From positions 2,011 through 66,010 of the forward strand of contig CAXRAI010000058.1 of NCBI GenBank assembly GCA_964228865.1: a stretch of 64,000 nucleotides of DNA, in the 5' to 3' direction. Below are positions 11,559 to 57,939 of the stretch, in pieces. The position numbers and the translations under genes were made by a program. The stretch's first letter is position 1, and each line of letters begins with the position of its first letter. The DNA comes from Salinimicrobium sp. (GTDB taxonomy: Archaea; Thermoplasmatota; Poseidoniia; Poseidoniales; Poseidoniaceae). The notes beneath the pieces are model-generated. The model saw nothing but the letters and a program-made list of their open reading frames with translations, was not told the origin of the DNA and searched no databases.

Positions 11559-11770
11559 GCCGTTGAGCCTCCGAACCCTGTTTGAAGCGGCGAGTTGGCC
11601 GTCACCTCCAAAGCCTCCGCGTCGCGCATGGTCCATCGATGGGAGAGCGCGGTCGTCAGGTGACCGTTGGCGAGGCAGAGTTTGAGGAGCTTCCTCAGGC
11701 CGCCCCTGCTGCCAGCACGGCCGACGAAATTGGGCCTGCGAAAATCCGCGCGCCGCTCGAGTTGCCGCCC

Positions 11771-12574
11771 ATGCAACCCTCCACCCAAGGTCTGGCACGC
11801 GTCGTCGCGGTAACCAACCAGAAGGGAGGGGTTGGAAAAACCACGACCGTGATCAACCTCGCCGCGAGTTTGGCGGCTTCAGGTCAGCGTGTGCTCGTGG
11901 TCGATCTGGATGCGCAAGGCAACTGTGCCACGGGCTTAGGCATCGACAAGTCGAGGGTTGACCTGACGACACGTGACCTCCTCCTCACGCCTGAACGGGC
12001 GGCTGAATGCAGGTATGCCACCCGAATCCCAACCCTCCATGTCGTGGTTGGCGACCGGAGGCTTGTGTCGGTAGAGGACGCGATTTTGTCGGATCTCGGA
12101 CGCGAATCACGCTTGGCAGAGGGGCTTGCACCCTTGCTGCCGCATTATGACCTGGTGCTCATCGATACGCCTCCCAACCTTGGTGTGCTGGCCATCAACG
12201 CCCTCTGTGCAGCCGATGGCGTGGTCGTGCCTGTGCAAACCGAATACTTCGCACTTGAAGGACTGGCCATGCTGCTGTCAACGGTTGAACAAGTGCGCCG
12301 TCGCTTGAATCCCGGGCTCGGCATCGACGGTGTGCTGATGACGATGCACGCGCCGACCCTCTTGAATCAGCAGGTGGCCAGTTTGTTGCGGGAACATTTG
12401 GGAGACGTGGTCGTTGAACCCCCCATCCGCCGGAACATCCGTTTGGCCGAAGCGACGAGCCGTGGCGAACCCATTCACGTCCACGCGCCCAATTCTAACG
12501 GCGGACAGGACCACCAAGCGGTGTCGAACGCCCTCGCCTCCCGGTGGGGCTTGGTCCGGGGGCGCGGAGCATGA
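11771..12574 (+). CDS. parA: ParA/Soj-family chromosome-partitioning ATPase
   Basis: Deviant Walker A NQKGGVGKTTT, DLDAQGNCATGLG, LIDTPPNLG. Start at MQPSTQGLARVVAV (the track ORF extends upstream to 11582). Confidence 0.88.
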   Translation: MQPSTQGLARVVAVTNQKGGVGKTTTVINLAASLAASGQRVLVVDLDAQGNCATGLGIDKSRVDLTTRDLLLTPERAAECRYATRIPTLHVVVGDRRLVSVEDAILSDLGRESRLAEGLAPLLPHYDLVLIDTPPNLGVLAINALCAADGVVVPVQTEYFALEGLAMLLSTVEQVRRRLNPGLGIDGVLMTMHAPTLLNQQVASLLREHLGDVVVEPPIRRNIRLAEATSRGEPIHVHAPNSNGGQDHQAVSNALASRWGLVRGRGA

Positions 12575-12966
12575 GCGAGCGTGGCTTGGGGCGTGGTCTC
12601 GATCACTTGATCGAACAAAACGCCACCGAACTTGGCTTCCTCGACGCTTACGGGCCCACTCCAGAAGAGGCCCTTGGTGAGATCTTCGATGCGGCATGCC
12701 ATGCCCTCAACGCGCTCAATGGAACACGGACCGAGGATGCGTACGAAACAGAAACCCTCCTGCTCCAAAGGGAGGCCGATGGGACACGGCTCACATGGCG
12801 TGGCCAGCATTTGCCGCTGGTGGCCAGTGATTTGCGGCTGCCCGGTATGCGCGAAGGCATGCTTTCAGACGCTCGGGACATGGCCGAGGTGACCTTCGTG
12901 GATTGGACGCTGGACGTTCGTCGCTGCTTGGAGCGGGTCGTCGAACACCACTCAGGGCCGCCGTGA
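12571..12966 (+). CDS. 131-aa protein with a ParB/Spo0J-type N-terminal peptide (RGLGRGLDHLI) but no ParB/HTH domain
   Basis: Its ATG overlaps the parA stop (ATGA). The N-terminus MSERGLGRGLDHLIEQ mirrors bacterial ParB N-termini. The remainder has no GxRRxRA or HTH motifs. Confidence 0.55.
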   Translation: MSERGLGRGLDHLIEQNATELGFLDAYGPTPEEALGEIFDAACHALNALNGTRTEDAYETETLLLQREADGTRLTWRGQHLPLVASDLRLPGMREGMLSDARDMAEVTFVDWTLDVRRCLERVVEHHSGPP

Positions 12967-16888: not shown

Positions 16889-17911
16889 TCAGCCGAGGTC
16901 AGGCACTTCGTGGAGCCATCCGAATTGATCCTCTTCCCGCTCGGCCTGAAGCCCCGTCAGGTGGGCATAGAGGTCCAGGGTCACAGGACCAGGCTTCCCG
17001 TCTCCGTAGGTCACGGTCCGTTCGCCGTGCGTGATGGACCCAATCGGTGAGATGACGGCGGCGGTTCCACAACAGAAGGCTTCGTCGGCTTCCATGGCCG
17101 CCTCGGCCGTCACCCGCTCTTCACGGACCTCAAGTCCACGGTGACGTGCGAGTTCGATGATCGATGCGCGGGTGATGCCCGGTAGGATGGTGCCCGTCAA
17201 GGAGGGCGTGCTCAAGACGCCGTCCTTCACGCAGAAAAAGTTCGCAGCACCCACCTCTTCGATGCAGGTGTGTGTTTCGGCGTCGAGGTAGATGACTTCG
17301 GCATACCCCGCCGCCTTGGCCGCATAGGAGGGCATCATGCCAGGCGCGTAATTTCCGATGGCCTTCACGCCACCTGAGCCGCCCGGTGCGGCACGATGGT
17401 GGTCGTCGGAGATGACCAGAGAAATCGCGTTCATGCCTCCTTTGAAGTACGGTCCAACCGGGGTGCAGTAGATCATGAACGTGAACGACGGAGCAGGCGC
17501 GACCCCCAACACTGGGCCGGAGCCAAAGAGAATGGGCCGCACGTAGAGCGCGCCTCGTCCACACGGCGGGACCCAACCTCGGTTGGCGTGCACGACCTGT
17601 TCGATGGCGTCCACGAAAATGGACTCTGGAACAGGCGGCATGCGGAGCCGGTCGGCACCGGCTTGCATGCGACGCGCGTTTTCTTCGGGGCGGAAGAACA
17701 CGATGCGATCTGCTTCGGTGCGGTACGCCTTCATGCCCTCGAAGAGGCCTTGGCCGTAGTTGAGCACGCCCGCCGCGGGGGAGATCGAGAATTCGGCGTA
17801 CGGCGTAAGGGCGCCCGGCATCCAAGGCTCGCCTGCGTTGACTTCGGCCACGTACATCCAATCGGTTGGGGTCAGCGAGAAGGTCAATGCGTCCCAGTCA
17901 ATGTCCTTCAT
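16889..17911 (-). CDS. ilvE: Branched-chain amino acid aminotransferase
   Basis: Class IV aminotransferase pattern (GQGLFEGMKAY, ALYVRPILFG, GVKAIGNYA, GITRASIIEL). Start at MKDIDWDAL. Confidence 0.88.
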   Translation of the reverse strand: MKDIDWDALTFSLTPTDWMYVAEVNAGEPWMPGALTPYAEFSISPAAGVLNYGQGLFEGMKAYRTEADRIVFFRPEENARRMQAGADRLRMPPVPESIFVDAIEQVVHANRGWVPPCGRGALYVRPILFGSGPVLGVAPAPSFTFMIYCTPVGPYFKGGMNAISLVISDDHHRAAPGGSGGVKAIGNYAPGMMPSYAAKAAGYAEVIYLDAETHTCIEEVGAANFFCVKDGVLSTPSLTGTILPGITRASIIELARHRGLEVREERVTAEAAMEADEAFCCGTAAVISPIGSITHGERTVTYGDGKPGPVTLDLYAHLTGLQAEREEDQFGWLHEVPDLG

Positions 17912-18036
17912 TCCACGCCCTCCATGGTCCCGGTTGTTCCTCACCTGAGCGCGGTATCAAGACTTTGCGCGTCGTCCCGTCGGCCTTGGATGGTCGGTGC
18001 GAAGGGCTGAAGGAGGCCAAAGCGGAGGCCCACACG

Positions 18037-20697
18037 ATGGCCTCCAACCGATGGGAAGGCCGCATCGGCGTGGTCAGTTCCCGCTACAGGTCCATTGGAG
18101 AAGGGGCCGAAGGCGTCACCGTGGTGGAGCTCTTCGGCCGCGCCGCCAGTGGAGAAAGCGTGTGCGTGCTGGTGCACGGTCTTCGTCCGCACATCGAGGT
18201 CGCGCCCATCGGACGATGGTCGAGCGGGCTGGATCTTCCCGAAGCACTGGTCGACGCTGCGGCCCGGCTCAAGGCCCGCGATCAGGTTCGGGCGGTGACT
18301 GGCCCAGAACTTCGCTGGACCGACCTCGGTTGGAAACCGGTGTGGCGTGTTGAGGTGCACCAGCCCTTCATGGTGCCAGAACTTCGCCGGTCCTTGGAAG
18401 GCGCATGGTCCCTCTTCGCAGCCGACATTCCGTTCACGAACCGCCTTCTTCTGGAAGCCGACTTGGGCATGCACGTTGCGGTGACCGGGGACGTCGTGGC
18501 TTTGCGCTCAGACGGTGAAGACGCCGAAACCGCGGTCCGCACCGCCGGCGGTGGCGGTGTGTATGCCGTGGACCTGACCCTTCGCTGCAACCTTGAGGAC
18601 CTTCAGCCCACAGAGGCCTTCCCGGTCCCCTTCCGGATGTTGTCTTTTGACCTGGAGACCAGCATCGCTGACAACAGCATCCTTTGTGCAGCCGCCGTGA
18701 TGGAAGACCTGGGCACTGGAGAGCGTACCGTGCACACGTGGCGTGACGATGAGTCTGCTTTGTTGGAAGGGATGACACAACTCATCATCGAGCGCGACCC
18801 TGACATCATCACAGGGTACAACATCGACAACTTCGATTTGCCCCGCATCGCCGAACGTGTGGAAGCCCTCGGCGGTCGCAAGAACACAGAGCGACGCTTG
18901 GCGATGTTCGGATGGGGCCGAACCCCTCAGGATGCTTCGGACCTCAGAAGGCAACGTGATTCCGTCGTCCCTAAGCGCGCCAGCACCCGTGCGTGGACCC
19001 TCGGCGGCCGCTGTGTGATGGACGCTTGGTGGCAAGCGCGGATGGCCTTGCGTCCGCAGCGAGAGACCTTGGCCTTCGTCAGCGCCTTGCTGTTTCCAGA
19101 GGACGCGGAACGGCAGAAGATGGACGTGGACGCCTCACGCATGGACGAGGAATGGGCGGCTCGACCCGACGTGGTGCTCGAGTATTGCCGCCGCGATGCA
19201 GAACTGCCGCTCGACATTTTGCAAGCCCTGCAGATCGTGCGCAGAAAGGAAGCCGTGGCCGCCGTGGCCAAGGTGCCCTTCGAAACCGCCAGCAACGGAA
19301 GCACCAGCCAACTCATCGATTCCCTTGTGATTCGCCGCGCGGACCGGACCGCCATCGCCGTGCCCATGACTGGAAGTGCGGAGCCCAAGGAAGGTCAGAT
19401 CACGGGAGGATACGTCCACGACGTGGAAGCGGGTTTGCACCCGTGGATTGCCGTGTTGGACTTCAAGAGCATGTATCCAAGCATCATGATCGGGCACAAC
19501 ATTTGCTACACCACGCGTGTGGACCCCGCTCATCCCGAGCAACCGTCGGACGGTGACGAAGTCCATACCGCCCCGACCGGTGTGCGCTTTTGGAGCGACG
19601 GTCACAGGACAGGCCTTGTCCCCTACCTGCTTCGAGACTTGATGGCTCAGCGCGACCGGCACAAACAGGGCATGCGGGATGCGGGCGATGAGGCGGAGCG
19701 GGCTTTTCACGACGCCATGCAGTACGCGGTGAAGATCCTGATGAACTCCTTCTACGGGGTCTTTGCCTCAGGGTTCTATCGCTTCACGCACCGTGATTTG
19801 GGTTCGTCCATTACCGCATGGGCCAGGCACAACATCAAGGCCGTCATCGCCGATTTGGAGGCGCAAGGGCACCCGGTGGTCTACTCGGACACGGACTCCA
19901 TCTTCGTCAAGTCCCCCATCGAGGGTGACGTGCCCGGTGCGATCCCAGCGCAGGCGAGAACTGCAGCAGAGGATGGCGATGCCGAGGCCCAAGCCACCGT
20001 CGGGCGGTGGGAAGCCGCCAAGGACGCGATGGTGGCCTTTGGCCTCGATTTGGCCGAACGCTACAGCCGCGATGCGGCCGTTCTGGAATTCGAGAAAGGC
20101 CTCTCCGTGTTCTTCTCTCACGGGGCCAAAAAGAGGTATGTCGGACAAGTGGTTTGGCCGAATGAGGACATGCTCATTCGCGGTTATGAGACGCAACGAA
20201 CCGATTCGTTCGCCTTCCTGGTGGAAAGCATGCACACGGTCATGGAACACGCCTTGGCCGACGAGGGCGAAGCCTTGGTCGCCTACGCGTTGGAACAGGT
20301 GATGGCGCTCAAAACCCAGCAGGTCGAAGCCGATCGCCTCATTCTTGCCAAATCATGCAAAGGGAAGGTGCGCCGCGATGGAACCGTGGACTTTGCTTCA
20401 GCCTATGCCAATCCGGACAGCATGGCGCAGGTCCGTGCGGCTAAGCAGCGCATCGAATTGGGCCTTCCTTTCACCTCGGGGATGAAGGTCTCCTTCGTGG
20501 TCACCGACGCCAGCCAGCGCCCGATGCAAGTGGGAGCATGGCTCGAAGAACAGGACGACGGTGGCGTTGAGGGCTACGATGGACGCTTCTACGCCGAACG
20601 CCTTGCAGCAGCCCTTGGTCGCATCACGGAGGCTTTTGGATGGACGGCTCAAGACCTGATGCGCGGCAGCCGACAAACGTCCCTCTTCTCCTTTTGA
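18037..20697 (+). CDS. polB: Family B DNA polymerase
   Basis: Exo I FDLETS, DFKSMYPSIMIGHNI, catalytic YSDTDSIFV. 886 aa from MASNRWEG, a length consistent with no intein. Confidence 0.92.
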   Translation: MASNRWEGRIGVVSSRYRSIGEGAEGVTVVELFGRAASGESVCVLVHGLRPHIEVAPIGRWSSGLDLPEALVDAAARLKARDQVRAVTGPELRWTDLGWKPVWRVEVHQPFMVPELRRSLEGAWSLFAADIPFTNRLLLEADLGMHVAVTGDVVALRSDGEDAETAVRTAGGGGVYAVDLTLRCNLEDLQPTEAFPVPFRMLSFDLETSIADNSILCAAAVMEDLGTGERTVHTWRDDESALLEGMTQLIIERDPDIITGYNIDNFDLPRIAERVEALGGRKNTERRLAMFGWGRTPQDASDLRRQRDSVVPKRASTRAWTLGGRCVMDAWWQARMALRPQRETLAFVSALLFPEDAERQKMDVDASRMDEEWAARPDVVLEYCRRDAELPLDILQALQIVRRKEAVAAVAKVPFETASNGSTSQLIDSLVIRRADRTAIAVPMTGSAEPKEGQITGGYVHDVEAGLHPWIAVLDFKSMYPSIMIGHNICYTTRVDPAHPEQPSDGDEVHTAPTGVRFWSDGHRTGLVPYLLRDLMAQRDRHKQGMRDAGDEAERAFHDAMQYAVKILMNSFYGVFASGFYRFTHRDLGSSITAWARHNIKAVIADLEAQGHPVVYSDTDSIFVKSPIEGDVPGAIPAQARTAAEDGDAEAQATVGRWEAAKDAMVAFGLDLAERYSRDAAVLEFEKGLSVFFSHGAKKRYVGQVVWPNEDMLIRGYETQRTDSFAFLVESMHTVMEHALADEGEALVAYALEQVMALKTQQVEADRLILAKSCKGKVRRDGTVDFASAYANPDSMAQVRAAKQRIELGLPFTSGMKVSFVVTDASQRPMQVGAWLEEQDDGGVEGYDGRFYAERLAAALGRITEAFGWTAQDLMRGSRQTSLFSF

Positions 20698-21926: not shown

Positions 21927-22016
21927 AGCCAAATTCCCGCGCAAGGCTTCGACCGAGGGCAGCGTGGAGTTCAAATAGGGGAGTTCAGTCGGCGAGTCGC
22001 ACAGGAGTGTATTACC

Positions 22017-40388: not shown

Positions 40389-40652
40389 TCAGGACCACTT
40401 GACGGGCAGGTCTGCACGTAACTTGGCCAATTCCTCACCGGAATAGAGGGGTCGCCCTCCTTCCTTGACGGTGCTTTGAATGAGCCAAAGGACGCCGTTC
40501 CAAGCGCTACGCGATGCGGTGATTTCGACGTCACCCCGGGCGGCGACGTTCATGAGCTCGGCTTCAGCCGTGGTCGAATCAAAGAGGGCCTTGACGAGAT
40601 GACGGGTCTCGAAGGCCACCTGAGGTGGCTTCCAACTCATCATGGCGTTCAC
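40389..40652 (-). CDS. Small hypothetical protein (87 aa), translationally coupled to the upstream RHH gene
   Basis: Its GTG start overlaps the RHH gene stop (GTGA); alternative ATGs lie 6-9 nt downstream. No recognised motif and no PIN signature. Confidence 0.45.
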   Translation of the reverse strand: MNAMMSWKPPQVAFETRHLVKALFDSTTAEAELMNVAARGDVEITASRSAWNGVLWLIQSTVKEGGRPLYSGEELAKLRADLPVKWS

Positions 40653-40891
40653 ACCCTGAACGGAGCGAGGTTCAACCGCTCGACGAGGTGGTCGACATCG
40701 ACGTCAGCCGTGGCTTTGGCGCGTTCACGCAGCAGCTCGAGGCTACCGTCCATACGCGCCATGCGCTGGTGACGAATGAGGTCGAGCAGGACCTCATTCA
40801 CGCTCTTGTAACCGCCCAGCGAGCGCAAGGTGTTCAACTGTCTTCGTACTTCGTAGCTCACGCTCACCGAGGTCATTCCCTTCGCTGTCAT
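40649..40891 (-). CDS. Ribbon-helix-helix (CopG/VapB-antitoxin-like) small DNA-binding protein
   Basis: TSVSVSYEVRRQLNTLRSLGGYKSVNEVLLDLIRH fits a beta-strand-helix-helix pattern. 80 aa, immediately downstream of a parA homologue. Confidence 0.55.
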   Translation of the reverse strand: MTAKGMTSVSVSYEVRRQLNTLRSLGGYKSVNEVLLDLIRHQRMARMDGSLELLRERAKATADVDVDHLVERLNLAPFRV

Positions 40892-40920
40892 CGTGCATCC
40901 CGCTTGGTCGTGCCCTCTTT

Positions 40921-40938
40921 GCGCTACTTAAGGCGCGC
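40921..40938. promoter_or_regulatory. Imperfect 18-bp palindrome GCGCTACTTAAGGCGCGC in the parA-RHH intergenic spacer
   Basis: 14 of 18 positions are self-complementary around a CTTAAG centre. It lies 30-50 nt upstream of the RHH start, so it is a candidate operator or centromere-like site. Confidence 0.3.
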
Positions 40939-40981
40939 GTGAGCCGATTCCGCCGGAGTGCGATTTGTGGACCCTTTCCGT

Positions 40982-41944
40982 TTAGCGGCGCCCTTGTGCC
41001 TCAAGGGAGACCCTGGACGGGTCGCGGACACCAAATTCTCGTCGCATGTCCTGCACACGCCGATGGAATTCACGGGCCAAGGTCCAGTATTCGAGGGACC
41101 CCGCACCTGCTCCAGAGGAGGTCGGCTTGTTGAGCAACACCGTGGGTGCGCCCGACCAAGGAGCTTCTGCCACGTTCACCAGGCGCCGAATGGAAGTACT
41201 GAACAGCTTGTTCGGGATGCTCAGCGCCACCTGATCGCACACGTGGCGGGAAAGTTTCGAGCGCGCGTCCACCATGGTCATGACCACGCCGAAAATCTTC
41301 AGGTTCCGGTTGATTCGACGCTGAATCATCTTGACCGAGTTCATCAGCATGCTGAACCCTTCCAACGAGTAGTACTCCGCTTGGACGGGAACCATGACCC
41401 AGTTCGCAGCGCTGAGGGCGTTGATGGAGAGCAAGCCAAGGGAAGGTGGTGTGTCGATGATGATGTAATCAAAATGATCGATGATGGGAGCCAAGGCCTC
41501 TTTGAGGCGCGTTTCGCGACCGATCTTGTGCGACAATTCAATTTCAGCCCCAGAGAGGTGAATGTCGCTGGGCAACAACCAGAGGTTCTCGGTGGTCAAA
41601 GTCGCTGGAGGGCGGCCTTTCTCGTTGCGCAGCATCCACGCGTTGCGCATCGAAGCCGTAAGGTCCTCAGGGCCGATGAGGTACTCGTCCATCAGTGGGA
41701 GTTCTTCTCCGAGATCGTTGGTCAGAAGGTCGTAGGCCGTCTTCTTCACGCGCTTCTTTTCGATGCCGAATGAGGTGGCGCAGTTGCCTTGCGGATCCAA
41801 GTCGATGAGCAACACCTTCGCAGGAGGCAAGCCCATTTTTTGATGGCCACGTGCCAAGGCAGCGGCAAGGTTGACCGCCGTGGTCGTCTTTGCGCAGCCG
41901 CCCTTCTGGTTGGCGACAGCGATGACCATCTTGTACGGGTCCAT
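40982..41944 (-). CDS. ParA/MinD-superfamily ATPase (second copy, 320 aa, with insertions and a basic C-terminal tail)
   Basis: Deviant Walker A NQKGGCAKTTT, DLDPQGNCATSFG, IIDTPPSLG. Confidence 0.82.
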   Translation of the reverse strand: MDPYKMVIAVANQKGGCAKTTTAVNLAAALARGHQKMGLPPAKVLLIDLDPQGNCATSFGIEKKRVKKTAYDLLTNDLGEELPLMDEYLIGPEDLTASMRNAWMLRNEKGRPPATLTTENLWLLPSDIHLSGAEIELSHKIGRETRLKEALAPIIDHFDYIIIDTPPSLGLLSINALSAANWVMVPVQAEYYSLEGFSMLMNSVKMIQRRINRNLKIFGVVMTMVDARSKLSRHVCDQVALSIPNKLFSTSIRRLVNVAEAPWSGAPTVLLNKPTSSGAGAGSLEYWTLAREFHRRVQDMRREFGVRDPSRVSLEAQGRR

Positions 41945-42989: not shown

Positions 42990-43066
42990 CCTATCACCTA
43001 TTCATCACAGTACGGCTGTCCATCCATATTTGAACGTGCTTGCGGGCCACGTCACCCCTGCATCAC

Positions 43067-47243: not shown

Positions 47244-47294
47244 GTTCAGGGCTTCAGCCGACGCTTGAAGGGCTTTCCCGTGGAAGAGGAGGAG

Positions 47295-47368
47295 TGCGCG
47301 AGGCAGGACTCGAACCTGCGACCTCCCGGTTATCAGCCGGGTGCTCCAACCGACTAAGCTACCCGCGC
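47295..47368 (-). tRNA. tRNA-Ile (anticodon GAT)
   Basis: The minus strand reads GCGCGGG-TA-GCTT..GAGC-A-CCCGG-CTGATAA-CCGGG-AGGTC-GCAGG-TTCGAGT-CCTGC-CTCGCGC-A. Confidence 0.9.
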
Positions 47369-47419: not shown

Positions 47420-48013
47420 TCACTCAAATTCAGAGGCGTCCATCTCGTTGAGCGCGATGTAAGAAGGCAACTGCATGGCACGTTCGAAGGTACGACCCAG
47501 CACCACCTCATCGAGTCGATCGCGTGTGCGGGCGATGGCCGTGAGCGGCAAGCGGATGGTTGGTCCAAGTTCGAAGCGTTGTTGGACGCCAATGCGCAAG
47601 GTGACGATGAAGCCCTTGTACGTCCGCTTGACCTTGAGCAATCCAGTGATGATGCCGACCTCATTGCCCTGGTTGTCGAGCACGGCGCGGTCAAGCATTT
47701 CATCGGGCGCGTAGAGTTGTTCGTCAATCCGGACCGTGTTCCGCCACCGGCGTTGCAGTTCACGCATGGACTTCGAAAGACGCACGGAGCCGTCGTCGTT
47801 GATGCTGTGCACCAATTCCTTGGGCAGCGGTGCATATTCGGCGGGTTTGCGCATGAATTCGCCCGCGACGTCCGTTTCGACCAGCATGCGCATGGATCGA
47901 ACACGGGACTCGTTTGGATGGTGGCGTTCACCGATGATGGTGCCCACCTTCGTGTCCTTCACGTATACGTCCCGTTGCATCAGCTCCTGAATGTGGTAGT
48001 CTGTTGGTGCCAT
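47420..48013 (-). CDS. Hypothetical protein, possibly with two PRC-barrel-like modules
   Basis: LMQRDVYVKDTKVGTIIG and MLDRAVLDNQGNEVGIITGLL resemble PRC-barrel N-terminal strands. Weak assignment. Confidence 0.45.
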   Translation of the reverse strand: MAPTDYHIQELMQRDVYVKDTKVGTIIGERHHPNESRVRSMRMLVETDVAGEFMRKPAEYAPLPKELVHSINDDGSVRLSKSMRELQRRWRNTVRIDEQLYAPDEMLDRAVLDNQGNEVGIITGLLKVKRTYKGFIVTLRIGVQQRFELGPTIRLPLTAIARTRDRLDEVVLGRTFERAMQLPSYIALNEMDASEFE

Positions 48014-48081
48014 GTTTTCCCTTCCCGTTGCACGGCCTGTGATGAGGGGGACACTTAATGTCTTCGACGGATAATGTAACT

Positions 48082-48330
48082 GTTCAATTGAGAATAGTCG
48101 TATTCTTGAGTAATTTCAATTGGAGATTCACGAAAATCGGCATGTCGCATAATCCATTCTGGTAACTGAATGCTGGCAGGATTCAATCTTGATTGGTGTC
48201 AAATTCCAATTGAAATCCCTCAAATATTCTGCGTCAGCACTGCCACGCCGACACGATCTGCCGCTCTGCCTGGCCGATGCCCTGGTGGAACGGGTGAATG
48301 CGCCAGAAAAAGAGCAATTTCCAATTGAAA
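48082..48330. repeat. Cluster of four TTYCAATTGRRA palindromic 12-mers in an AT-rich divergent intergenic region
   Basis: GTTCAATTGAGA 48082-48093, TTTCAATTGGAG 48114-48125, TTCCAATTGAAA 48204-48215, TTCCAATTGAAA 48319-48330. Confidence 0.7.
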
Positions 48331-48394
48331 CACGCCGGTATTCGCTCATGGTTGTGGCGGCGACCTCATTAGGGAAAAGCCACGACCTGCAAGC

Positions 48395-49081
48395 ATGGTG
48401 GCCATCGGTCTTGGTGGCTTGCACCCGAGGTTGGCCGCAACGGTCCTGCTTCACGCTGCGCGAAAAGGTCAGGCCGTATGTGGCGCCGTGCCGGCCGCAC
48501 GGCAACTGGCTCACGCCCGGGACCCCCTCGGTGCATCGTCTGTGGTCGAATCAAGCGAGGCCACGGTCCATCTTTTCGGTCCGGGCGACCACCACCGCTT
48601 GGCCCTGAGCCGCGGCGATCACGTGCTGACGGTGCTACCACTGGACGTTATTCCCACCCTTACTGCTGGGGTGTGGCCGGTCGTCCACCTGGACGACAAC
48701 GTTCGAGACGGATGGTGGGTCGCTGAACACGACGTCATTGACGCCATCTTACATCTGGCCCAGGTGCCGTTCTCAACCGGAACGGTGGTCATGAGCGGGC
48801 GCCGGCTTTGGCAAGCCTCTGAGCTGGTTCAAGAGGCCTCCATGCTTCATCGCCGTTGGTCGGCGGGCCTCGACGGGGCCTTTTCTGTCGACGTTCTTGC
48901 CGAACCACAACGGCCGCCCGTGCGCGTCCAAACGATCCTTTCAGGGGAATCGGAACCTGACCTTCGGCCGCTGCACGAGCTTCTTCTTGCTCAACGGGCC
49001 GAAGGCTGGCGTCCCCAAATGACCGTGAGGGAGGCCCTGATGCACCATTTGGCCTTGAACGAAGGGCTCAACCGTGCGTGA
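48395..49081 (+). CDS. Hypothetical protein (start and frame at the 5' end uncertain)
   Basis: 228-aa ORF with plausible composition from about residue 45 onward. An overlapping ORF (48189-48608) in another frame looks coding in its first ~60 codons. Confidence 0.4.
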   Translation: MVAIGLGGLHPRLAATVLLHAARKGQAVCGAVPAARQLAHARDPLGASSVVESSEATVHLFGPGDHHRLALSRGDHVLTVLPLDVIPTLTAGVWPVVHLDDNVRDGWWVAEHDVIDAILHLAQVPFSTGTVVMSGRRLWQASELVQEASMLHRRWSAGLDGAFSVDVLAEPQRPPVRVQTILSGESEPDLRPLHELLLAQRAEGWRPQMTVREALMHHLALNEGLNRA

Positions 49082-50100: not shown

Positions 50101-52404
50101 TCAATCAATCCCTGCTGCATCGAGCCGGTCGTTGATCAGCATCAAGCGATCGCGCAGCCGCGCAGCCTCTTCGAAATCGAGGGCCTTCGCGGCATCTTCC
50201 ATGGCGGACTTCACTTCTGAGGCCAGTTCTGCTAAGGCCTCTTGGTTGGAAGGAAGTTCATTGTCGGTTTCCAATTGAGAATCGTAATGTTCAATTGAAA
50301 TCCGCTGGTCATTGTCTGTCCCACCGTTCGCTGCCATAAACGTGGGTCCTGCACCTTCTGCGCGACCACCTCGGCGGGCCACCAAGCGCTTACCACCGCG
50401 ACCTGCAGCGGTGGTTCCTTCGACAAGACCCTCAGATTCTTGGCCCATCTGCGGAAGGGCCTTGACGATGGTTCTCGGCACGATGCCACGCCGCTGATTG
50501 TCCTGTTCTTGACGTTCGCGACGTTCCAGCGTTTGACGGATGGCCGCGGTCATCGAAGGCGACACGCTGTCTGCATACAGCAAGACTGAGCCGTTGGCGT
50601 TGCGGGCCGCACGGCCGATGGTTTGCAACAGGGAGCGTTCGTTGCGAAGGAAGCCTTGCCGGTCGGCGTCAAAGATGGCCACCAAACTGACCTCCGGGAT
50701 GTCGAGGCCCTCGCGGAGGAGGTTGATGCCGACGATGACGTCAATGAGTCCCAAACGAAGGGCATTGATGATCTCGGTTCGCTCGATGGTGTCGATTTCT
50801 GAGTGCAGGTGATGGGCCTTGACGCCCATGCGGCTGAGGTAGGCCGCGACTTCCTCTGCGAACTTGATGGTCAGCACGGTGACCAAGGTCCGTTCACCTC
50901 GCTCGATGCGGGCGTTGATTTCGGACAGCAAGTCGGCCACCTGGCCTTCCGTGGGACGGACTTCGATGCCTGGATCCAACAGCCCAGTCGGCCGAATTTC
51001 CATCCGAGGCAGGTGGTCGATGCTTTGCAGCATCTCGTACATCGAGGGCGAGCCCTGGATTTTCTTTGCCACATCGGCAGGGCCTGCTCCACCTTGCGAC
51101 GCGACGTGCAACAGGCCCTCGGGCACCGCCTGCCCCGTGACTTCACACAGATGACGCAGTTCCCGCTCCCCGGGGGTGGCCGAGACGTACACCATTTGCG
51201 GCACGAGGCTCTGGAATTCAGGGAGCTTCAGCGGCCGGTTGTCTGCAGCAGAAGGCAGACGGAAGCCATGTTCGATGAGGTTCTCCTTGCGTGCCCGGTC
51301 GCCGTGGTACATGCCACCGACCTGGGGCAAGGTCACGTGAGATTCGTCCATGATGACGAGGAAGCGGCTGGGGTCGCCGTGGAACTGCCGAGCACACGCC
51401 GCGAAGAAGTCCAGCAAGCAGTACGGTCGCTCTCCCGCATCACGGCCGTCGAAATGCCGTGAGTAGTTCTCAATCGCCAAGCAATGCCCCACTTCACGCA
51501 GCATTTCGAGGTCGTACTCGGTGCGTTGCTCCAGCCGGTGCCGCTTCACCACTTCATTTGTGCCGTCGAAGTGCTTCAGACGGCCGTTCAACTCGTTCTC
51601 GATGCGCTCGAGGGCGATTTCGAAGCGTTCCGGGCTGGTCATGAAGAATTCCTTCGGGTGAATCCAAGCTTCCTCCAACTCGTCAAGCACCTCCCAACTG
51701 ACCGGATCGCACACGGCCACGGCGACAACGCCGTCGAAATCGAAGCGGATGCGCAACGGGTCGTCGCGGCTCGGCATCCACACGTCCAACACTTCGCCGC
51801 GCAAGCGGGCTTGTCCTCGCTCAAGGTCCGTGTTGGTCCGCGCGTACTGCAGCCCGACCAGGGCCTTCATCAGATCCTGCGGCTCGATGGCCTGACCCAC
51901 GTGCACCCTGAGGTGGTGCTCAAGGAAGGTCTCGGGCGGGTTCAGCCCGTAAATGCACGAGACAGAGGACACGATGACGCAATCCGGCCGGGACACCAAA
52001 CTGGCCACGGCCGAGAAGCGCTCCTGCTCGATGCGCTCGTTGATGGAGAGTTCCTTGTCGATGTACAGGTCCCGCTTGGGCAGGTAGGCTTCAGGTTGGT
52101 AGTAGTCGTAATGCGACACGAAGTACTCCACGGCATTCTCCGGGAAGTAGCCCGCCAATTCGTGGTGCAACTGTCGCGCGAGCGTTTTGTTGTGCGACAT
52201 GATCAGCGTGGGAAGGTTCAGCCGCTCGATGACGTTCGCCATGGCGAAGGTCTTGCCTGACCCCGTCACACCAAGCAGCACGCACCGTTCTTGACCACCC
52301 TCAATTTGCTGGACCAGGTGCTCGATGGCTTCCGGCTGATCACCGGCGGGAGCATGTTCCGAATGCAGCACAAAGCGGCTGACCTCCGGGCGGAGGTGCT
52401 CCAT
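50101..52404 (-). CDS. uvrB: Excinuclease ABC subunit B
   Basis: FVLHSEHAPAGDQPEAI, GVTGSGKTF, QTIGRAARN, C-terminal UVR motif AKALDFEEAARLRDRL. An alternative start at 52524 would add a 40-aa acidic extension. Confidence 0.93.
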   Translation of the reverse strand: MEHLRPEVSRFVLHSEHAPAGDQPEAIEHLVQQIEGGQERCVLLGVTGSGKTFAMANVIERLNLPTLIMSHNKTLARQLHHELAGYFPENAVEYFVSHYDYYQPEAYLPKRDLYIDKELSINERIEQERFSAVASLVSRPDCVIVSSVSCIYGLNPPETFLEHHLRVHVGQAIEPQDLMKALVGLQYARTNTDLERGQARLRGEVLDVWMPSRDDPLRIRFDFDGVVAVAVCDPVSWEVLDELEEAWIHPKEFFMTSPERFEIALERIENELNGRLKHFDGTNEVVKRHRLEQRTEYDLEMLREVGHCLAIENYSRHFDGRDAGERPYCLLDFFAACARQFHGDPSRFLVIMDESHVTLPQVGGMYHGDRARKENLIEHGFRLPSAADNRPLKLPEFQSLVPQMVYVSATPGERELRHLCEVTGQAVPEGLLHVASQGGAGPADVAKKIQGSPSMYEMLQSIDHLPRMEIRPTGLLDPGIEVRPTEGQVADLLSEINARIERGERTLVTVLTIKFAEEVAAYLSRMGVKAHHLHSEIDTIERTEIINALRLGLIDVIVGINLLREGLDIPEVSLVAIFDADRQGFLRNERSLLQTIGRAARNANGSVLLYADSVSPSMTAAIRQTLERRERQEQDNQRRGIVPRTIVKALPQMGQESEGLVEGTTAAGRGGKRLVARRGGRAEGAGPTFMAANGGTDNDQRISIEHYDSQLETDNELPSNQEALAELASEVKSAMEDAAKALDFEEAARLRDRLMLINDRLDAAGID
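50269..50300. repeat. Pair of TTYCAATTGRRA 12-mers 20 bp apart inside the uvrB linker
   Basis: TTCCAATTGAGA 50269-50280 and GTTCAATTGAAA 50289-50300, bracketed by the 8-bp direct repeat TCATTGTC (50258-50265, 50309-50316). Confidence 0.7.
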
Positions 52405-52565
52405 GGAGGCCCCCTCGAGGGCACGGGACAAGTCGAAGGGGTCCCGCTCCTGCAGGTCCACCTCGCCCACGTCGAGGTTGGCACGGGCCTCGAAGGACCC
52501 GTCATCGTCCCAGTCATCGACCACGAATCAGGGCGGTCGGGCGCCGGTTTGAACCCTTGTGGGAC

Positions 52566-54639: not shown

Positions 54640-56601
54640 TCAGGCCCCTCCGTTCGGGAAACGAAGGTGTGGAGGCCATGAATAGTCCGCCAATTCTGGG
54701 TGGGATGCGACCTTTTCCAAGGTCTCCGGGCTGTGCAGCGTCACGGCAGGCCAACGGCGCACGCCATGCGACTCAGAGGGGATGGGTGTCGTGGCGTCCC
54801 AACACAACCGTGCCTTTCCTTCGTCGAAGGTCAGGCCTCGGCCCACGTCGAAACGGCAAAACAGCTGCCAAAGCATGCGACGGCGAGCCTTTGGCCCGTG
54901 CAGGTCGAGATCATCATCGGTGATGATGAGCCAGCGCAAATCCTTGGCTTCTTTCAATTGCCAAATTTGATTTTTCAATTGAAGAATCTTTTCTTGACGG
55001 GCCGCCTCAAGCGCATCGCCTTCTGGCGTCACTTCCGATCCCGTGCGGGGTGAGGGCCTGCCTTCGATGGCCACGCTGACCACCAGCATGCTGTTGCGCA
55101 GCAGCCGCGCATCCTCAGCACCATCGAGGGCCAACACGGACGACAGATCGTCCCCAGCCCATCCAGGGGCTTCGGCCCCGCCACGTCGCCACTCAGGAGT
55201 CGCTTGCTTGAATGAGCCCAGCAGAGGTGCTTCTCCAGAGCGTGGATCCGTCGACGGAATGGACGTCGCATCGATGATGACCTTGTCGTGGACGTTTTCG
55301 TACGGGCTTGCTGCTTCAAGCGCGTCTGCGACCATGCCTTCGAGGACAATGACGTCCTCGGCGGGATCGACCTTGTCGTTGAGGTCATCGAGGAATCCCT
55401 CGAGGTCCTTCGGGTCGCGGTCAGGGTCGACGACGACCATCGACTTCAGGAACATCATTTGTCCAGCGCCCATCAGGCCGATGGCCGTCTTCCGACCCTG
55501 GCGAGGGTACCGTTGCTTTGAGGCGACGATGGCGAGGTTGTGGAAGCCGGTCTCCAACGGGAGATGCACGCTGACCACGTCACGGTGCTGGAAGCGAAGG
55601 ACGGGGCTGAACTGACGCCCAATGGCCTCGCCGAGGAAGCCGTCCTCCATGGGCGGGAGCCCCACGATGGTCGCCGGCAACATCGCGTCGGCACGGCGGG
55701 TCACGGCGGTGACGTTTAGCACGGGGTAGTGGCCGGTCAGGGAGTAGAAGCCGTAGTGGTCACCGAAGGGTCCTTCGACGCGCAGATCGGTCGGGTCGGT
55801 CCACCCCTCGATGACGATGTCCGCTTCTGCAGGGATCCACAGGTCCTGCGTGGCGGCTTTGGTCAGAGGGAGGCGTCGGCGACCGAGGATACCTGCGAAT
55901 TGGTACTCCGACAGGTTATCGGGAAGCGGGGAAATCGCTGAGAAAATCAGCTCAGGCGGACCTCCAAGGCAGATCGCTACCGGCATCTTCAGCCCGGCTG
56001 CGGCGTGGTCTGCGCCGTGCTTGTGCACTTGCCAATGCAAGCCTGCTTCTTTCGGTCCAAAGATTTGCGAGCGGTACATGCCAAGGTTGTGTTCGCCTGA
56101 GGCCAGGTCACGGGTGACCACCAGCGGGAGCGTGATGTAGGCTCCTCCGTCCATCGGCCATGTCGTTGGAATGGGGAGTTTGGTCAGGTCAGGGTCGGTG
56201 TCGACGATGCGCTGAACGCGGCCACGGCGCTTTCGCTTCGGGGCGAACGCCAGCGCGTCCATGGCCAGCGGTAGGGCTTCCCAAGGTCGCTTGAGGTACC
56301 GCGGCACGTCCGGCTTCATCATGGCAACCATGCGGTCGCCGATGGCCGTCTCGGTCTCAACGCCCAGAGCGCGCAAGGTCCTGTCCTCGCTTCCAAAGAG
56401 GTTCATCACCAGCGGAACCTCGCTGATGCTGCCGTCCGCAAGGCGGGGTTGCTCAAAGATCACGGCAGGGCCGTCGTTCTTCACAAGCAGGTCGGCGATG
56501 GCGCCGGCTTCGTGAACGACGTCAACGGGACGGGGGATGCGCAACACCTCACCGCGCTGCTCAAGGTGGTCCACCCACCGCTTGAGCGTCCTCCATGCCA
56601 T
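54640..56601 (-). CDS. ubiD: UbiD-family (prenyl-FMN-dependent) decarboxylase with an extended C-terminus
   Basis: N-terminus WRTLKRWVDHLEQRGEVLRI, YRSQIFGPKE...HW and a VVVDPDRD-type segment. 653 aa from MAWRTLK. Confidence 0.82.
   Translation of the reverse strand: MAWRTLKRWVDHLEQRGEVLRIPRPVDVVHEAGAIADLLVKNDGPAVIFEQPRLADGSISEVPLVMNLFGSEDRTLRALGVETETAIGDRMVAMMKPDVPRYLKRPWEALPLAMDALAFAPKRKRRGRVQRIVDTDPDLTKLPIPTTWPMDGGAYITLPLVVTRDLASGEHNLGMYRSQIFGPKEAGLHWQVHKHGADHAAAGLKMPVAICLGGPPELIFSAISPLPDNLSEYQFAGILGRRRLPLTKAATQDLWIPAEADIVIEGWTDPTDLRVEGPFGDHYGFYSLTGHYPVLNVTAVTRRADAMLPATIVGLPPMEDGFLGEAIGRQFSPVLRFQHRDVVSVHLPLETGFHNLAIVASKQRYPRQGRKTAIGLMGAGQMMFLKSMVVVDPDRDPKDLEGFLDDLNDKVDPAEDVIVLEGMVADALEAASPYENVHDKVIIDATSIPSTDPRSGEAPLLGSFKQATPEWRRGGAEAPGWAGDDLSSVLALDGAEDARLLRNSMLVVSVAIEGRPSPRTGSEVTPEGDALEAARQEKILQLKNQIWQLKEAKDLRWLIITDDDLDLHGPKARRRMLWQLFCRFDVGRGLTFDEGKARLCWDATTPIPSESHGVRRWPAVTLHSPETLEKVASHPELADYSWPPHLRFPNGGA
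54952..54984. repeat. Pair of TTTCAATTG-type 12-mers 21 bp apart inside ubiD
   Basis: TTTCAATTGCCA 54952-54963 and TTTCAATTGAAG 54973-54984, within a local AT-rich patch. Confidence 0.6.
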
Positions 56602-56670: not shown

Positions 56671-57939
56671 ATGGACTCCGTGGGCTCACCATGCAGCATG
56701 GCAGCGGAGCCGGAGGTCGACGTTGACCTCGTGGTCATTGGTGCTGGCCCGGGAGGAGGTTCAGCTGCCTTGCATGCCTCGAGGCTCGGCCTCTCTGTGA
56801 TGGTCCTTGAGGCCGACCCAGAAATTGGAACCCCCGTACATTGCGGCGAGTGCTTGTCGCACCTCGCCACCGAACAACTCGAACTCGATCTTCCCGACCA
56901 CGTCATCGCCTTGGCCGTGGATGGAGTGCGCGTGATTTTCCCTGACGGCACGGCGAAATTGTTGACCGAACCGGGGTACGTGCTGGAGAAGCACCTGTTT
57001 GAGCGGTGGATCATGGAGCAGGCCGAGGAACGCGGTGCAGGCATTTACCTCGGCCATCGCGTGACCAAAATGGAACGTGAATTCAATAGCGAAAATCAAT
57101 TTTCCAATTGGAGTCTCGATGGAAGAGGCGACGCTTTCCCCATCCGATGCCGTGGCGTCATCGATGCTTCAGGCGTGCATGGAGCGGCTTCGAAGATCCT
57201 TGGAATGCCCGGTGAGGTGGAGGTCATCGCGGGCTTTCAGTACGAGCTGAACGACGTGCCGAACGACGGCTACCTGGACTTTTACATCCAGCCTGAATAC
57301 GCTCCTCACGGCTATGTGTGGATGATTCCAAAGGCGGGTGAACGCGCCAACGTTGGGTTGGTCACCACCGACAAAAAGGGGGCGGTCAAGTACCTCGACC
57401 AATTCATTGACGACACCTACCTCAAAGGGAAACCACACGTGAATCCTCCTTGGCGCAAGGAGGGCATCAAGGTCAGACCTTTCGGCGGGACCATTCCCAT
57501 CTCGGGACCCAGGGCAAGCACGGTGGAAGACGGATTGCTGCTGGTCGGTGACGCAGCAGGATTCACGTCTCCGCTCTTCGAAGGAGGCACACACCTTGCG
57601 TTGTGGTCGGGTCGCGCAGCGGCTGAAACCTTTGCAGAAGCCATCGCAGCAGGTTTGCCGACCAAAGACCGTCTGTCGGGCTATCAGCGCAGATGGAAAG
57701 GTGCCTTCCCTCCTTACCACAAGATCTTGCGAGGGAAAACGGCCCTGTACGATTTGAGCGACGATGAAATGTCGGCGATGGCCAGGTGCTTGCCTGAGGA
57801 ACTCGGGTCGATGTCACCGCTGCAAAAGCTTGGCATTGGCATGAAGATCCTCGTGCGTCGCCCCGCGCTGTTGACCAAGCGCGTGATTTCTGTGCTTCTT
57901 TCGTTTGGCTATTCACGGGCCAAACACTTCGGTTGGTGA
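56671..57939 (+). CDS. Geranylgeranyl reductase-family FAD-dependent oxidoreductase
   Basis: DLVVIGAGPGGGSAA (GxGxxG) and LLVGDAAGFTSPLFEGG. Alternative start at 56698. Confidence 0.85.
   Translation: MDSVGSPCSMAAEPEVDVDLVVIGAGPGGGSAALHASRLGLSVMVLEADPEIGTPVHCGECLSHLATEQLELDLPDHVIALAVDGVRVIFPDGTAKLLTEPGYVLEKHLFERWIMEQAEERGAGIYLGHRVTKMEREFNSENQFSNWSLDGRGDAFPIRCRGVIDASGVHGAASKILGMPGEVEVIAGFQYELNDVPNDGYLDFYIQPEYAPHGYVWMIPKAGERANVGLVTTDKKGAVKYLDQFIDDTYLKGKPHVNPPWRKEGIKVRPFGGTIPISGPRASTVEDGLLLVGDAAGFTSPLFEGGTHLALWSGRAAAETFAEAIAAGLPTKDRLSGYQRRWKGAFPPYHKILRGKTALYDLSDDEMSAMARCLPEELGSMSPLQKLGIGMKILVRRPALLTKRVISVLLSFGYSRAKHFGW
57102..57113. repeat. Single TTCCAATTGGAG 12-mer inside the reductase gene
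   Basis: The bottom strand reads CTCCAATTGGAA. It is embedded in an AT-rich patch (GAAAATCAATTTTCCAATTGGAG). Confidence 0.5.

Follow-up and report, generated by a model that had tools for sequence, protein, structure and literature searches.

The question raised by this locus is which process is served by the palindromes crowded into a 381-bp spacer (48014-48394) of a Poseidoniaceae (Marine Group II) archaeon with a GC content of ~61%. The spacer lies in a 64-kb stretch of contig CAXRAI010000058.1, hereafter called the window, and separates two divergent genes whose positions agree with those given in a preliminary description of this DNA: one encodes a 197-aa tandem PRC-barrel protein resembling CdpB1/CdpB2 (47420-48013, minus strand), and the other a 228-aa protein (48395-49081, plus strand). 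That description proposed either a replication origin with sites resembling mini origin recognition boxes (mini-ORB) or a parS-like centromere. To our knowledge, nothing is known about gene regulation, cell-cycle control, the start of replication, or chromosome segregation in Marine Group II archaea. The answer favoured here, to which a probability of roughly 40% is given, is that the array consists of putative sites for one dimeric DNA-binding protein, which would control the divergent promoters of the CdpB-like gene and its neighbour, and that it is part of a Poseidoniales-wide family of sites used by viruses too; from the patterns described below, we infer both the protein binding and the transcriptional control.

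According to a weight matrix made from 233 orthologous sites (cut-off ≥12 bits), the actual repeat unit is a 16-bp palindrome, WWTTYCAATTGRAAWW, of which the spacer holds four copies within 48080-48332. These are palindrome 1 (CTGTTCAATTGAGAAT, 48080-48095, 17.1 bits), palindrome 2 (AATTTCAATTGGAGAT, 48112-48127, 22.9 bits) at 32 bp from the first, palindrome 3 (AATTCCAATTGAAATC, 48202-48217, 23.6 bits), and palindrome 4 (ATTTCCAATTGAAACA, 48317-48332, 21.8 bits). The four 12-mers on which the preliminary description was built were all recovered with the sequences and at the coordinates that it reported, and the last two copies do share 15 of 16 nt (CAAATTCCAATTGAAA and CAATTTCCAATTGAAA). However, its view that two copies point one way and two the other could not be maintained, as the core CAATTG is self-complementary and any orientation rests only on weakly asymmetric flanks. 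In the window, TTYCAATTGRRA with at most one mismatch gave 15 strand-matches, corresponding to nine distinct sites against 1.24 expected, and none of 100 shuffles reached this count; with the weight matrix, nine sites were found, all of them between 48080 and 57115 and none in 1-48 kb. The segment 48060-48240, described earlier as ~60% A+T, has 61.3% A+T compared with 38.4% window-wide, which places it in the top 0.03% of 180-bp segments, and the A+T maximum of the window (63.9% over 180 bp) starts at 48051. The idea of CAATTG as a restriction target was discarded, given that the bare hexamer is not depleted (14 observed, 16.8 expected).

Conservation was assessed in 80 loci around orthologues of the 197-aa gene, taken from GTDB species genomes of 41-62% GC and kept from 141 stretches that passed tblastn; with the exception of one mislabelled bin, they are labelled as Poseidoniaceae or Poseidoniales or, more broadly, as Methanobacteriota, Euryarchaeota, or Thermoplasmatota. 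Metagenome-assembled genomes of Poseidoniaceae gave the nearest matches to the genes of the window. These loci provided 72 distinct orthologous spacers or upstream regions, and two to six CAATTG cores are present within 470 nt in every one of them (72/72), when 0.15 would be expected from composition. The conservation of the spacer in related genomes, suggested as a check in the preliminary description, is thus borne out for the palindromes throughout. When ten high-GC relatives were aligned, little of the spacer could be aligned beyond the cores of the four palindromes, a block GGATTATGCGACATGCCGATT, the leader and promoter on the proximal side, and, beside the divergent start codon, a distal CCTATGAG box; this pattern reads as a classic phylogenetic footprint. 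Within this alignment, the core of palindrome 1 is kept in 7 of the 10 relatives and is one base off (TAATTG or CAATTA) in the other three, palindrome 2 has an invariant core with variable flanks, palindrome 3 keeps bases 1-5 of its core in all relatives and base 6 in nine of ten, and the core of palindrome 4 is invariant. The spacing from the proximal palindrome to the TATA-like box is kept at ~20-24 nt. Over the 72 spacers, a distance of 32-33 bp between palindromes was seen 43 times, and the site spacings as a whole follow no single helical phase. The gene upstream varies between clades, and the array therefore travels with the 197-aa gene. In 22 diverse genomes profiled for coding and non-coding sites, 69 of 125 sites fall in intergenic DNA, which makes up 9.5% of the sequence. 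Across the whole family, the existence of the palindromes, their excess over chance, selection on them at the DNA level, and their fixed positions relative to promoters are established, which sets the array apart from an ordinary AT-rich spacer.

A second conserved element, ATTATGCGACA, is located on the minus strand at 48143-48153, within the invariant block GGATTATGCGACATGCCGATT, and is the sole exact match to ATTATRCGWCA in the window. In the 80 loci, one to three copies of the motif ATTATRCGWCR are present per spacer, each of them oriented like the 197-aa gene. They lie at about -110 and -165 to -195 (-140 in the high-GC clade), and within 10 kb on either side the motif is confined to this spacer. 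A degenerate second copy (ATTATCCGTCGA, 48064-48075, minus strand) is found directly upstream of a TATA-like box, within the fully conserved proximal block of alignment A1. Promoter elements were predicted from sequence. The putative core promoter and 5' leader of the PRC-barrel gene (48014-48060, minus strand) comprise a CATTAAGTG box at 48052-48060 and a GGGAAGGG Shine-Dalgarno-like stretch ahead of the ATG, and they are nearly invariant in the ten relatives. On the other side, a predicted TATA-like box (CATTAGGG, 48367-48374, plus strand) stands ~24 nt before the ATG of the 228-aa gene and is conserved, with a CCTATGAG or CCATATGAG box aligned at this position in the relatives; the arrangement suggests that the transcript of this gene is leaderless or has a short leader. 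Palindrome 1 lies 20 nt upstream of the former box and palindrome 4 ~40 nt upstream of the latter.

The CATTAAGTG box resembles WATAKGGG boxes found 25-30 nt before other starts in the window. Such boxes (AAATAGGGG, CATTAGGG, GATAGGGG, and AAATATGG) occur upstream of many genes, for instance at 21975-21985, 42990-43060, and 48367-48374, and often ~25-30 nt before the start codon. WATAKGGG is likely the general promoter box of this high-GC genome, and the distance between box and start suggests that many transcripts are leaderless. A role for the palindrome as a general promoter element was rejected, since other genes bear WATAKGGG-type boxes instead. Also rejected was an upstream open reading frame or N-terminal extension beginning at ATTATGCGACA, which is in frame in some low-GC clades, where some gene callers extend the gene accordingly, and which is interrupted in the high-GC clade and hence not coding.

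The gene to which the array is always attached encodes a 197-aa protein with no sequence match in Pfam, NCBIfam, or PDB. Its AlphaFold2 model consists of two beta-barrels with a mean predicted local distance difference test score (pLDDT) of 82.9, for which Foldseek ranks the CdpB1/CdpB2 heterodimer of A. fulgidus (8qzo, E ~1e-7) first, ahead of PRC-barrel proteins, RimM, and CdvA; homologues carry the JGI name 'YlmC with PRC-barrel domain'. PRC-barrel CdpB proteins function in FtsZ-based archaeal division, and one Haloferax paralogue is divergent from infB, a gene that lies 2.5 kb away here. The divergent 228-aa protein has no match in Pfam, NCBIfam, or PDB either; its gene is restricted to the high-GC clade, with an N-terminus conserved in close relatives, and a different gene occupies its position in the other clades.

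Under the favoured reading, dimers would occupy the 16-bp palindromes 20-55 nt upstream of the TATA-like boxes and could contact each other across spacings of 20, 32, and 90-115 bp, and the dimers of the array might also contact paired sites located in uvrB and in a ubiD-like gene. The palindromes and the ATTATGCGACA element would form a joint upstream control region of both promoters, and binding would set the transcription of a gene of the cell-division type. Viruses of the same hosts would recruit the same host factor by means of a module, consisting of a pair plus one further site, in front of genes of their own. The constant placement of conserved sites with respect to core promoter elements, as in an operator array, is seen in the footprint, in the distances of the ATTATGCGACA element, and in the geometry of gene junctions, with the promoters taken as predicted. 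In Haloferax, CdrS binds 41-110 nt upstream of the transcription starts of division genes (PMC8406309). The regulator aCcr1 is reported to control cell division in Sulfolobales and to have viral homologues, and its peak follows the expression of CdvA, a PRC-barrel protein (PMC9976878). As in these two systems, a short symmetric motif is placed here upstream of division-gene promoters; however, the motif sequence is unrelated, and four to six copies per promoter are found together with conserved intragenic pairs. In addition, what the viruses carry in the present case is the sites.

Sites of this family are also located inside genes. A pair of palindromes 20 bp apart (at 50267 and 50287, spanning 50267-50302; 20.1 and 20.8 bits) falls in the variable C-terminal linker of uvrB, and it is found at the same place in all clades with uvrB nearby, where both cores stay while the peptide changes (SIEHYDSQLE, PIENSKIQLT, SIGNSNIQLA, or QPIEEINFSIEELK, the last with a 21-bp spacing). 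For the pair of the window, the core codons have a probability of 8e-4 in view of the amino acids encoded. In the low-GC clades, uvrB has a further pair in its conserved N-terminal region (AIEKLISQLENGQ), with nearly frozen synonymous positions amid varying flanking codons. Judging from these codons, the intragenic copies are selected as DNA. The uvrB gene itself (50101-52524, minus strand) is unusually long (807 aa), as the helicase core is separated from the UVR domain by an acidic linker of low complexity, which houses the pair, and it overlaps the start codon of the deoxyhypusine synthase gene by 20 nt. Another pair, 21 bp apart (at 54950 and 54971, spanning 54950-54986; 14.0 and 23.2 bits), lies in the ubiD-like gene in the form CAATTG-N15-CAATTG; the closest relatives have kept it, it is seen again in L013, L068, and L075, and other clades have at most single sites there. 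A single palindrome (57100-57115, 18.7 bits) falls in a geranylgeranyl-reductase-like gene, and the orthologous position (~-9100) is occupied in relatives. In the contig beyond the end of the window, a further 20-bp pair, ~490 bp out, fills the 40-bp spacer between the carboxyltransferase and enoyl-CoA hydratase genes, and no more sites occur in the extended contig for 6.9 kb to the right and 4.7 kb to the left. Over the 22 genomes, 66 sites are in the last kb before the 197-aa gene, 55 at -10 to -2 kb, and 4 in the 11 kb downstream.

Pairs are found at gene junctions as well. At six independent stop-to-start junctions, the second core of the pair ends 10-12 nt before the ATG and abuts the Shine-Dalgarno sequence; these are ndk to infB in four genomes (low-GC clade and two metagenome contigs), carboxyltransferase to enoyl-CoA hydratase, and the SDR gene of another Poseidoniales genome, the contig of which was assigned to Poseidoniales through a 99%-identical NCBI protein. 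In one further contig, the pair directly precedes a TATA-like box. The SDR locus of three other genomes has a weak pair (L458) or none, the pair not being stable across genera, and the dispersed copies are less stable than those around the PRC-barrel gene. A CAATTG-N15-CAATTG pair associated with the SDR gene is intragenic in L386 (1555-1591) and L458 (~10225-10255), with the sequences FSIEKFVSSIEK and EAIDNFISTIEE, and stands in the spacer just upstream of the orthologue in L441; the element seems to be kept near the SDR gene while its exact position shifts. A pattern scan of metagenomes returned mostly chance occurrences among the matches listed, with about a dozen genuine Poseidoniales or viral instances among them, some of these in new contexts.

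The junctions bear on an explanation without any dedicated factor, in which the element would be a compact near-symmetric promoter or a terminator/insulator cassette (two palindromes with 14 AT-rich nt between them) used by the general transcription machinery, or an RNA or DNA hairpin marking operon junctions. At the junctions, the AT-rich 14-mer between the cores is centred ~25 nt before the ATG, the place expected of a TATA box if the transcript is leaderless. The cores are bordered by T-runs on both strands, and a pair, as read from the sequences, can fold into a hairpin of ~10-12 bp. The invariant part, however, is the CAATTG core and not the AT-rich centre or the T-runs, and single unpaired sites are conserved too. 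Since the main array is also upstream of divergent promoters, where no transcript is expected, the general promoter boxes of the genome are different (WATAKGGG), and no Rfam family matches, this explanation is considered very unlikely. A structured non-coding RNA was dismissed on similar grounds: Rfam gave tRNAs and a chance match to mir-304 (E 0.51), with nothing at gathering thresholds at the spacer, and only short motifs are conserved.

Viruses carry the same arrangement. At least 10 magrovirus-like contigs in IMG/VR have the pair with a third copy 26-36 bp off, immediately after a primase-like gene and before the next gene. Nucleases, PolB, and a protein with a weak likeness to archaeal primases are encoded by L123, the one contig that was examined in full; PolB recurs in several other module-bearing contigs, and three module-bearing viral contigs come from records of 78-101 kb. 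In a different type of virus, the same pair-plus-one module is located upstream of a terminase-small-subunit-like gene and is followed by an AAATAGG box. In the magrovirus-like contigs, the module is followed by a gene (L123, 1763-1907; L304, 4941-5100) that encodes a protein of ~41 aa with two CxxC pairs (MRFTTRLCVNRKCKNVARTGFRKCPSCISGKV...), which looks like a zinc ribbon. A DNA-binding protein common to virus and host was sought and rejected, as tblastn of the viral open reading frames against the host loci matched PolB only, and no viral homologue of a regulator was seen in the viral fragments compared. Identity between the host family-B DNA polymerase (17866-20697, plus strand) and the PolB encoded by the viral contigs with the motif is only ~23%.

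High-GC viral contigs with CAATTGaCAATTGtCAATTG arrays were rejected as relatives and all treated as unrelated; the sole one annotated, L279, has tape-measure and Phage_BR0599 tail genes of kinds known from alphaproteobacterial phages and gene-transfer agents. Contigs L258, L274, L279, L296, L338, L348, L370, L387, L438, and L452, with 52-63% GC, bear arrays like CAATTGaCAATTGtCAATTGaaaattttCAATTG, made of 6-bp palindromes with 1-bp spacers, which in the IMG/VR cases examined are positioned 25-45 nt before GGAGG and ATG and whose architecture recalls the SegB site TCTAGA-S-TCTAGA. Arrays of the CAATTGaCAATTGtCAATTGaaaattttCAATTG type are taken as a separate operator family, and L279, with its siphophage-like tail module, as bacterial.

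Several observations weigh against control of the divergent promoters by a dimeric regulator. Unrelated coding sequences have pairs preserved in them, at tolerant positions like the uvrB linker, the fixed geometry at the junctions may only reflect the little room between stop codon and Shine-Dalgarno sequence, the palindrome is not the general promoter element of the genome, and no candidate for the binding protein was tied to the palindrome computationally. An ordinary regulon would also leave the packing of the sites unexplained: 11 sites are found in 16.4 kb, whereas the 52.7 kb to the left and the 6.9 kb to the right of them are devoid of sites, and at another Poseidoniales locus, three 20-kb stretches have zero to one site each.

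The packing counts in favour of a reading along the lines of the centromere initially proposed, namely a SegB/parS-like organizing patch, in which a small site-specific protein, possibly the partner of one of the two Soj-type ParA ATPases in the window, would nucleate on the array and its satellites and bridge them into a partition or organizing complex, with promoter effects being secondary as for omega of plasmid pSM19035 or SegB of Sulfolobus. We consider this rather unlikely, although it would account for the regional concentration both here and in the 22 genomes (66 and 55 sites before the 197-aa gene compared with 4 in 0 to +11 kb). The sites outside the spacer are mostly intragenic and preserved at synonymous positions, and the position of a site shifts between spacer and coding sequence in relatives (L441 compared with L386 and L458). 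Such a distribution matches that of SegB in Sulfolobus, with 46-49 sites of a palindromic motif, a major cluster around segAB, and 83% of the sites intragenic (PMC12284271). A major cluster in one sector, with mostly intragenic sites, was found in the 22 genomes, and the window and its extensions agree; a nearby ParA-family operon and few scattered sites add to the likeness. However, the SegB motif is TCTAGA-S-TCTAGA and its strongest sites are directly upstream of segA, whereas the densest array is here 6 kb from the ParA-like gene.

The operon in question (40389-41944, minus strand) consists of a gene for a Soj-type ParA-like ATPase (40982-41944; NCBIfam ParA match) followed by genes for proteins of 80 aa (40649-40891) and 87 aa (40389-40652). 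Its arrangement with these two small genes is kept 6-7.5 kb from the array, and the same three genes are present in three long-read contigs. Among PDB sequences, the ATPase is best matched by 8ray, a 'ParA family protein' (E 2.5e-50), and by Soj of T. thermophilus (E 3e-42), with SegA at only 4e-15, and its being of Soj type and not of SegA type counts against the segregation reading. The 80-aa family is confined to Poseidoniales and bears the JGI label CopG-like; the AlphaFold2 monomer is helical (pLDDT 70.8), with only non-significant ribbon-helix-helix matches in Foldseek, and neither the 80-aa nor the 87-aa protein matches Pfam or NCBIfam. Located beside the ParA-like gene, the CopG-like protein is only a candidate binder of the palindromes. 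The window has no CAATTG upstream of either the ParA-like or the 80-aa gene, so that the motif is missing from the operon promoter, where centromere-binding proteins usually regulate themselves and where the SegAB system has its strongest sites. In L336 (17140-17172), a relative of 48% GC and the only one examined in this respect, a CAATTG core lies 10 nt before the ATG of the 80-aa CopG-like gene, where the window reads CCAAGCG; this may be a lineage-specific link of the motif with the ParA-associated small gene.

The second ParA-family ATPase (330 aa) is followed by an acidic protein of 131 aa (11582-12966, plus strand), which begins with MSERGLGRGLDHLI, including the ParB-like peptide GLGRGLDHLI, a ParA-stimulating N-terminal peptide typical of ParB, and in which no DNA-binding domain could be recognised; this protein may act as an adaptor of ParA for non-DNA cargo. 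In a search confined to the genes beside both ParA genes, no ParB domain was detected, the 131-aa partner having this N-terminal peptide only. Neither a ParB-type protein nor a proven ribbon-helix-helix binder was found among these genes. Bacterial parS is of the TTTCA-NN-TGAAA type and, together with the Noc-binding site (NBS), it resembles the present element in its 16-bp palindrome with TTTC...GAAA arms, in several copies within ~16 kb, some of them intragenic, and in the presence of ParA-type ATPases nearby. Over the central 12 bp, the sole difference from parS is the middle dinucleotide, the centre being AATT and not ACGT. In contrast, pairs at 20 bp and promoter-phased copies are foreign to parS, and a ParB/Noc-type protein was not found in the window or among the neighbours. 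Of the centromere of the preliminary description, the likeness to parS and the regional clustering, including inside genes, are supported, whereas a ParB-type protein among the genes searched and a copy of the motif at the promoter of the ParA-like operon were not found. Pairs are also present at other genomic loci, and modules upstream of the genes of tailed viruses would not be expected of a host centromere. Because of the fixed promoter-proximal positions, the sites at junctions, and the viral copies, gene control fits at least as well as a centromere.

Both roles are combined in the small protein omega of pSM19035, whose repeat arrays in promoter regions are operators and at the same time the centromere for a ParA-type ATPase. 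By analogy, a dual operator and centromere role of this kind would reconcile the control and segregation readings. However, omega binds 7-bp direct or inverted heptads on a plasmid, unlike the 16-bp palindrome found here on a chromosome.

The origin suggested in the preliminary description would be one with non-canonical boxes, in which the palindromes would be sites for Orc1/Cdc6 or another initiator, ATTATGCGACA an auxiliary element similar to ucm, the uvrB and ubiD pairs satellites like the dp1 cluster, and magroviruses borrowers of the host initiator; this is judged quite improbable. The motif shares its 'TTCC' and 'GAA' cores with ORB and mini-ORB boxes (PMC1904270), and it agrees with TTCCAGTGGAAA in 10 of 12 positions; however, the dyad centre is even, 1 bp longer than in ORB, and there is no G-string. 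Canonical ORB sites (TTCCAGTGGAAA core plus G-string) with at most two mismatches are at chance level in the window, and those with at most one mismatch amount to 10 scattered matches, without a cluster, in 1.39 Mb of related loci, although Orc1/Cdc6.1 of Marine Group II groups with sister lineages that use the canonical box (PMC4153887). The spacer is the most AT-rich segment of the window, and several copies of a TTCC...GAA dyad in such a spacer, with satellites in the neighbouring coding region, recall an archaeal oriC. As regards a layout of inverted boxes flanking an unwinding element, the A+T maximum is present, and the boxes are palindromic, so that their orientation is undefined. Of the ~80-bp AT-rich spacer described between inverted copies, a 78-bp segment (48126-48203) does exist, but it has only 59% A+T and holds ATTATGCGACA, and it is therefore not a plain unwinding tract; no long, strongly AT-rich unwinding tract is seen. 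The 11-bp element between the dyads, ATTATRCGACA, unique to the spacer, resembles ucm (ATTATACAAAC), an origin element of Sulfolobus, with 8 of 11 positions in agreement and the first seven all among them (PMC12141716). Satellites inside genes have a precedent in Thermococcales, where ORB clusters also occur within coding sequence; in Pyrococcus, a second cluster lies inside the dp1 coding region and ~30 repeats are scattered (PMC1904270).

On the viral side, the module abuts a primase-like gene, and magroviruses, for which a near-complete replisome has been reported, have MCM, primase, and PolB in their gene list and not Orc1/Cdc6 (PMC5434244). In the host, however, as the preliminary description had pointed out for the adjacent genes, no orc1/cdc6-type open reading frame was found, either within -16/+48 kb here (Walker A search) or within 10 kb on either side in the 80 genomes, and the gene tables of the extended loci have no Cdc6/ORC Pfam domain. 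The cumulative GC skew, suggested as a check in the preliminary description, rises on both sides of the array without an inflection. GC skew at third codon positions is equal for plus- and minus-strand genes on both sides, so there is no replication-strand signal in this genome and skew cannot decide the question of an origin. All elements are, moreover, in fixed phase to the promoter, pairs are located at gene junctions, and only in a few per cent of cases would a 64-kb stretch chosen at random contain an origin. What stands of the proposal is the resemblance to ORB cores and the clustering of sites, including inside genes; the orc1/cdc6 gene and the canonical boxes that would go with it were not found in these searches.

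Taken more broadly, it is possible, if doubtful, that the spacer and its satellites mark the Poseidoniaceae origin and/or partition region, read by a non-canonical factor such as a diverged Orc1 paralogue or a SegB/ParB-like small partner of ParA, and that magroviruses carry the boxes beside their primase gene to use it. If true, Marine Group II would thereby gain its first defined origin or centromere, and the borrowing of such a region by a virus would be described for the first time. Whichever reading holds, the 16-bp palindrome and its 11-bp companion provide a precise, family-wide handle on the DNA, situated before a CdpB-like division gene, under selection inside uvrB, and common to the infecting viruses. 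The sites could be used as bait for DNA-affinity experiments or DNA affinity purification sequencing (DAP-seq) with metagenome-derived proteins, and the palindromes are a possible host-linkage marker for viruses of Poseidoniales.

Two further features of the region were observed. The window encodes a XerA-type tyrosine recombinase (5263-6342, minus strand; NCBIfam recomb_XerA_Arch, 9e-55). Many of the assemblies among L001-L080 end inside the spacer or ~100-150 bp past the PRC-barrel gene, at a tRNA-Ile gene (47294-47368 in the window), which suggests strain-level hypervariability or an integration hotspot beside the tRNA.

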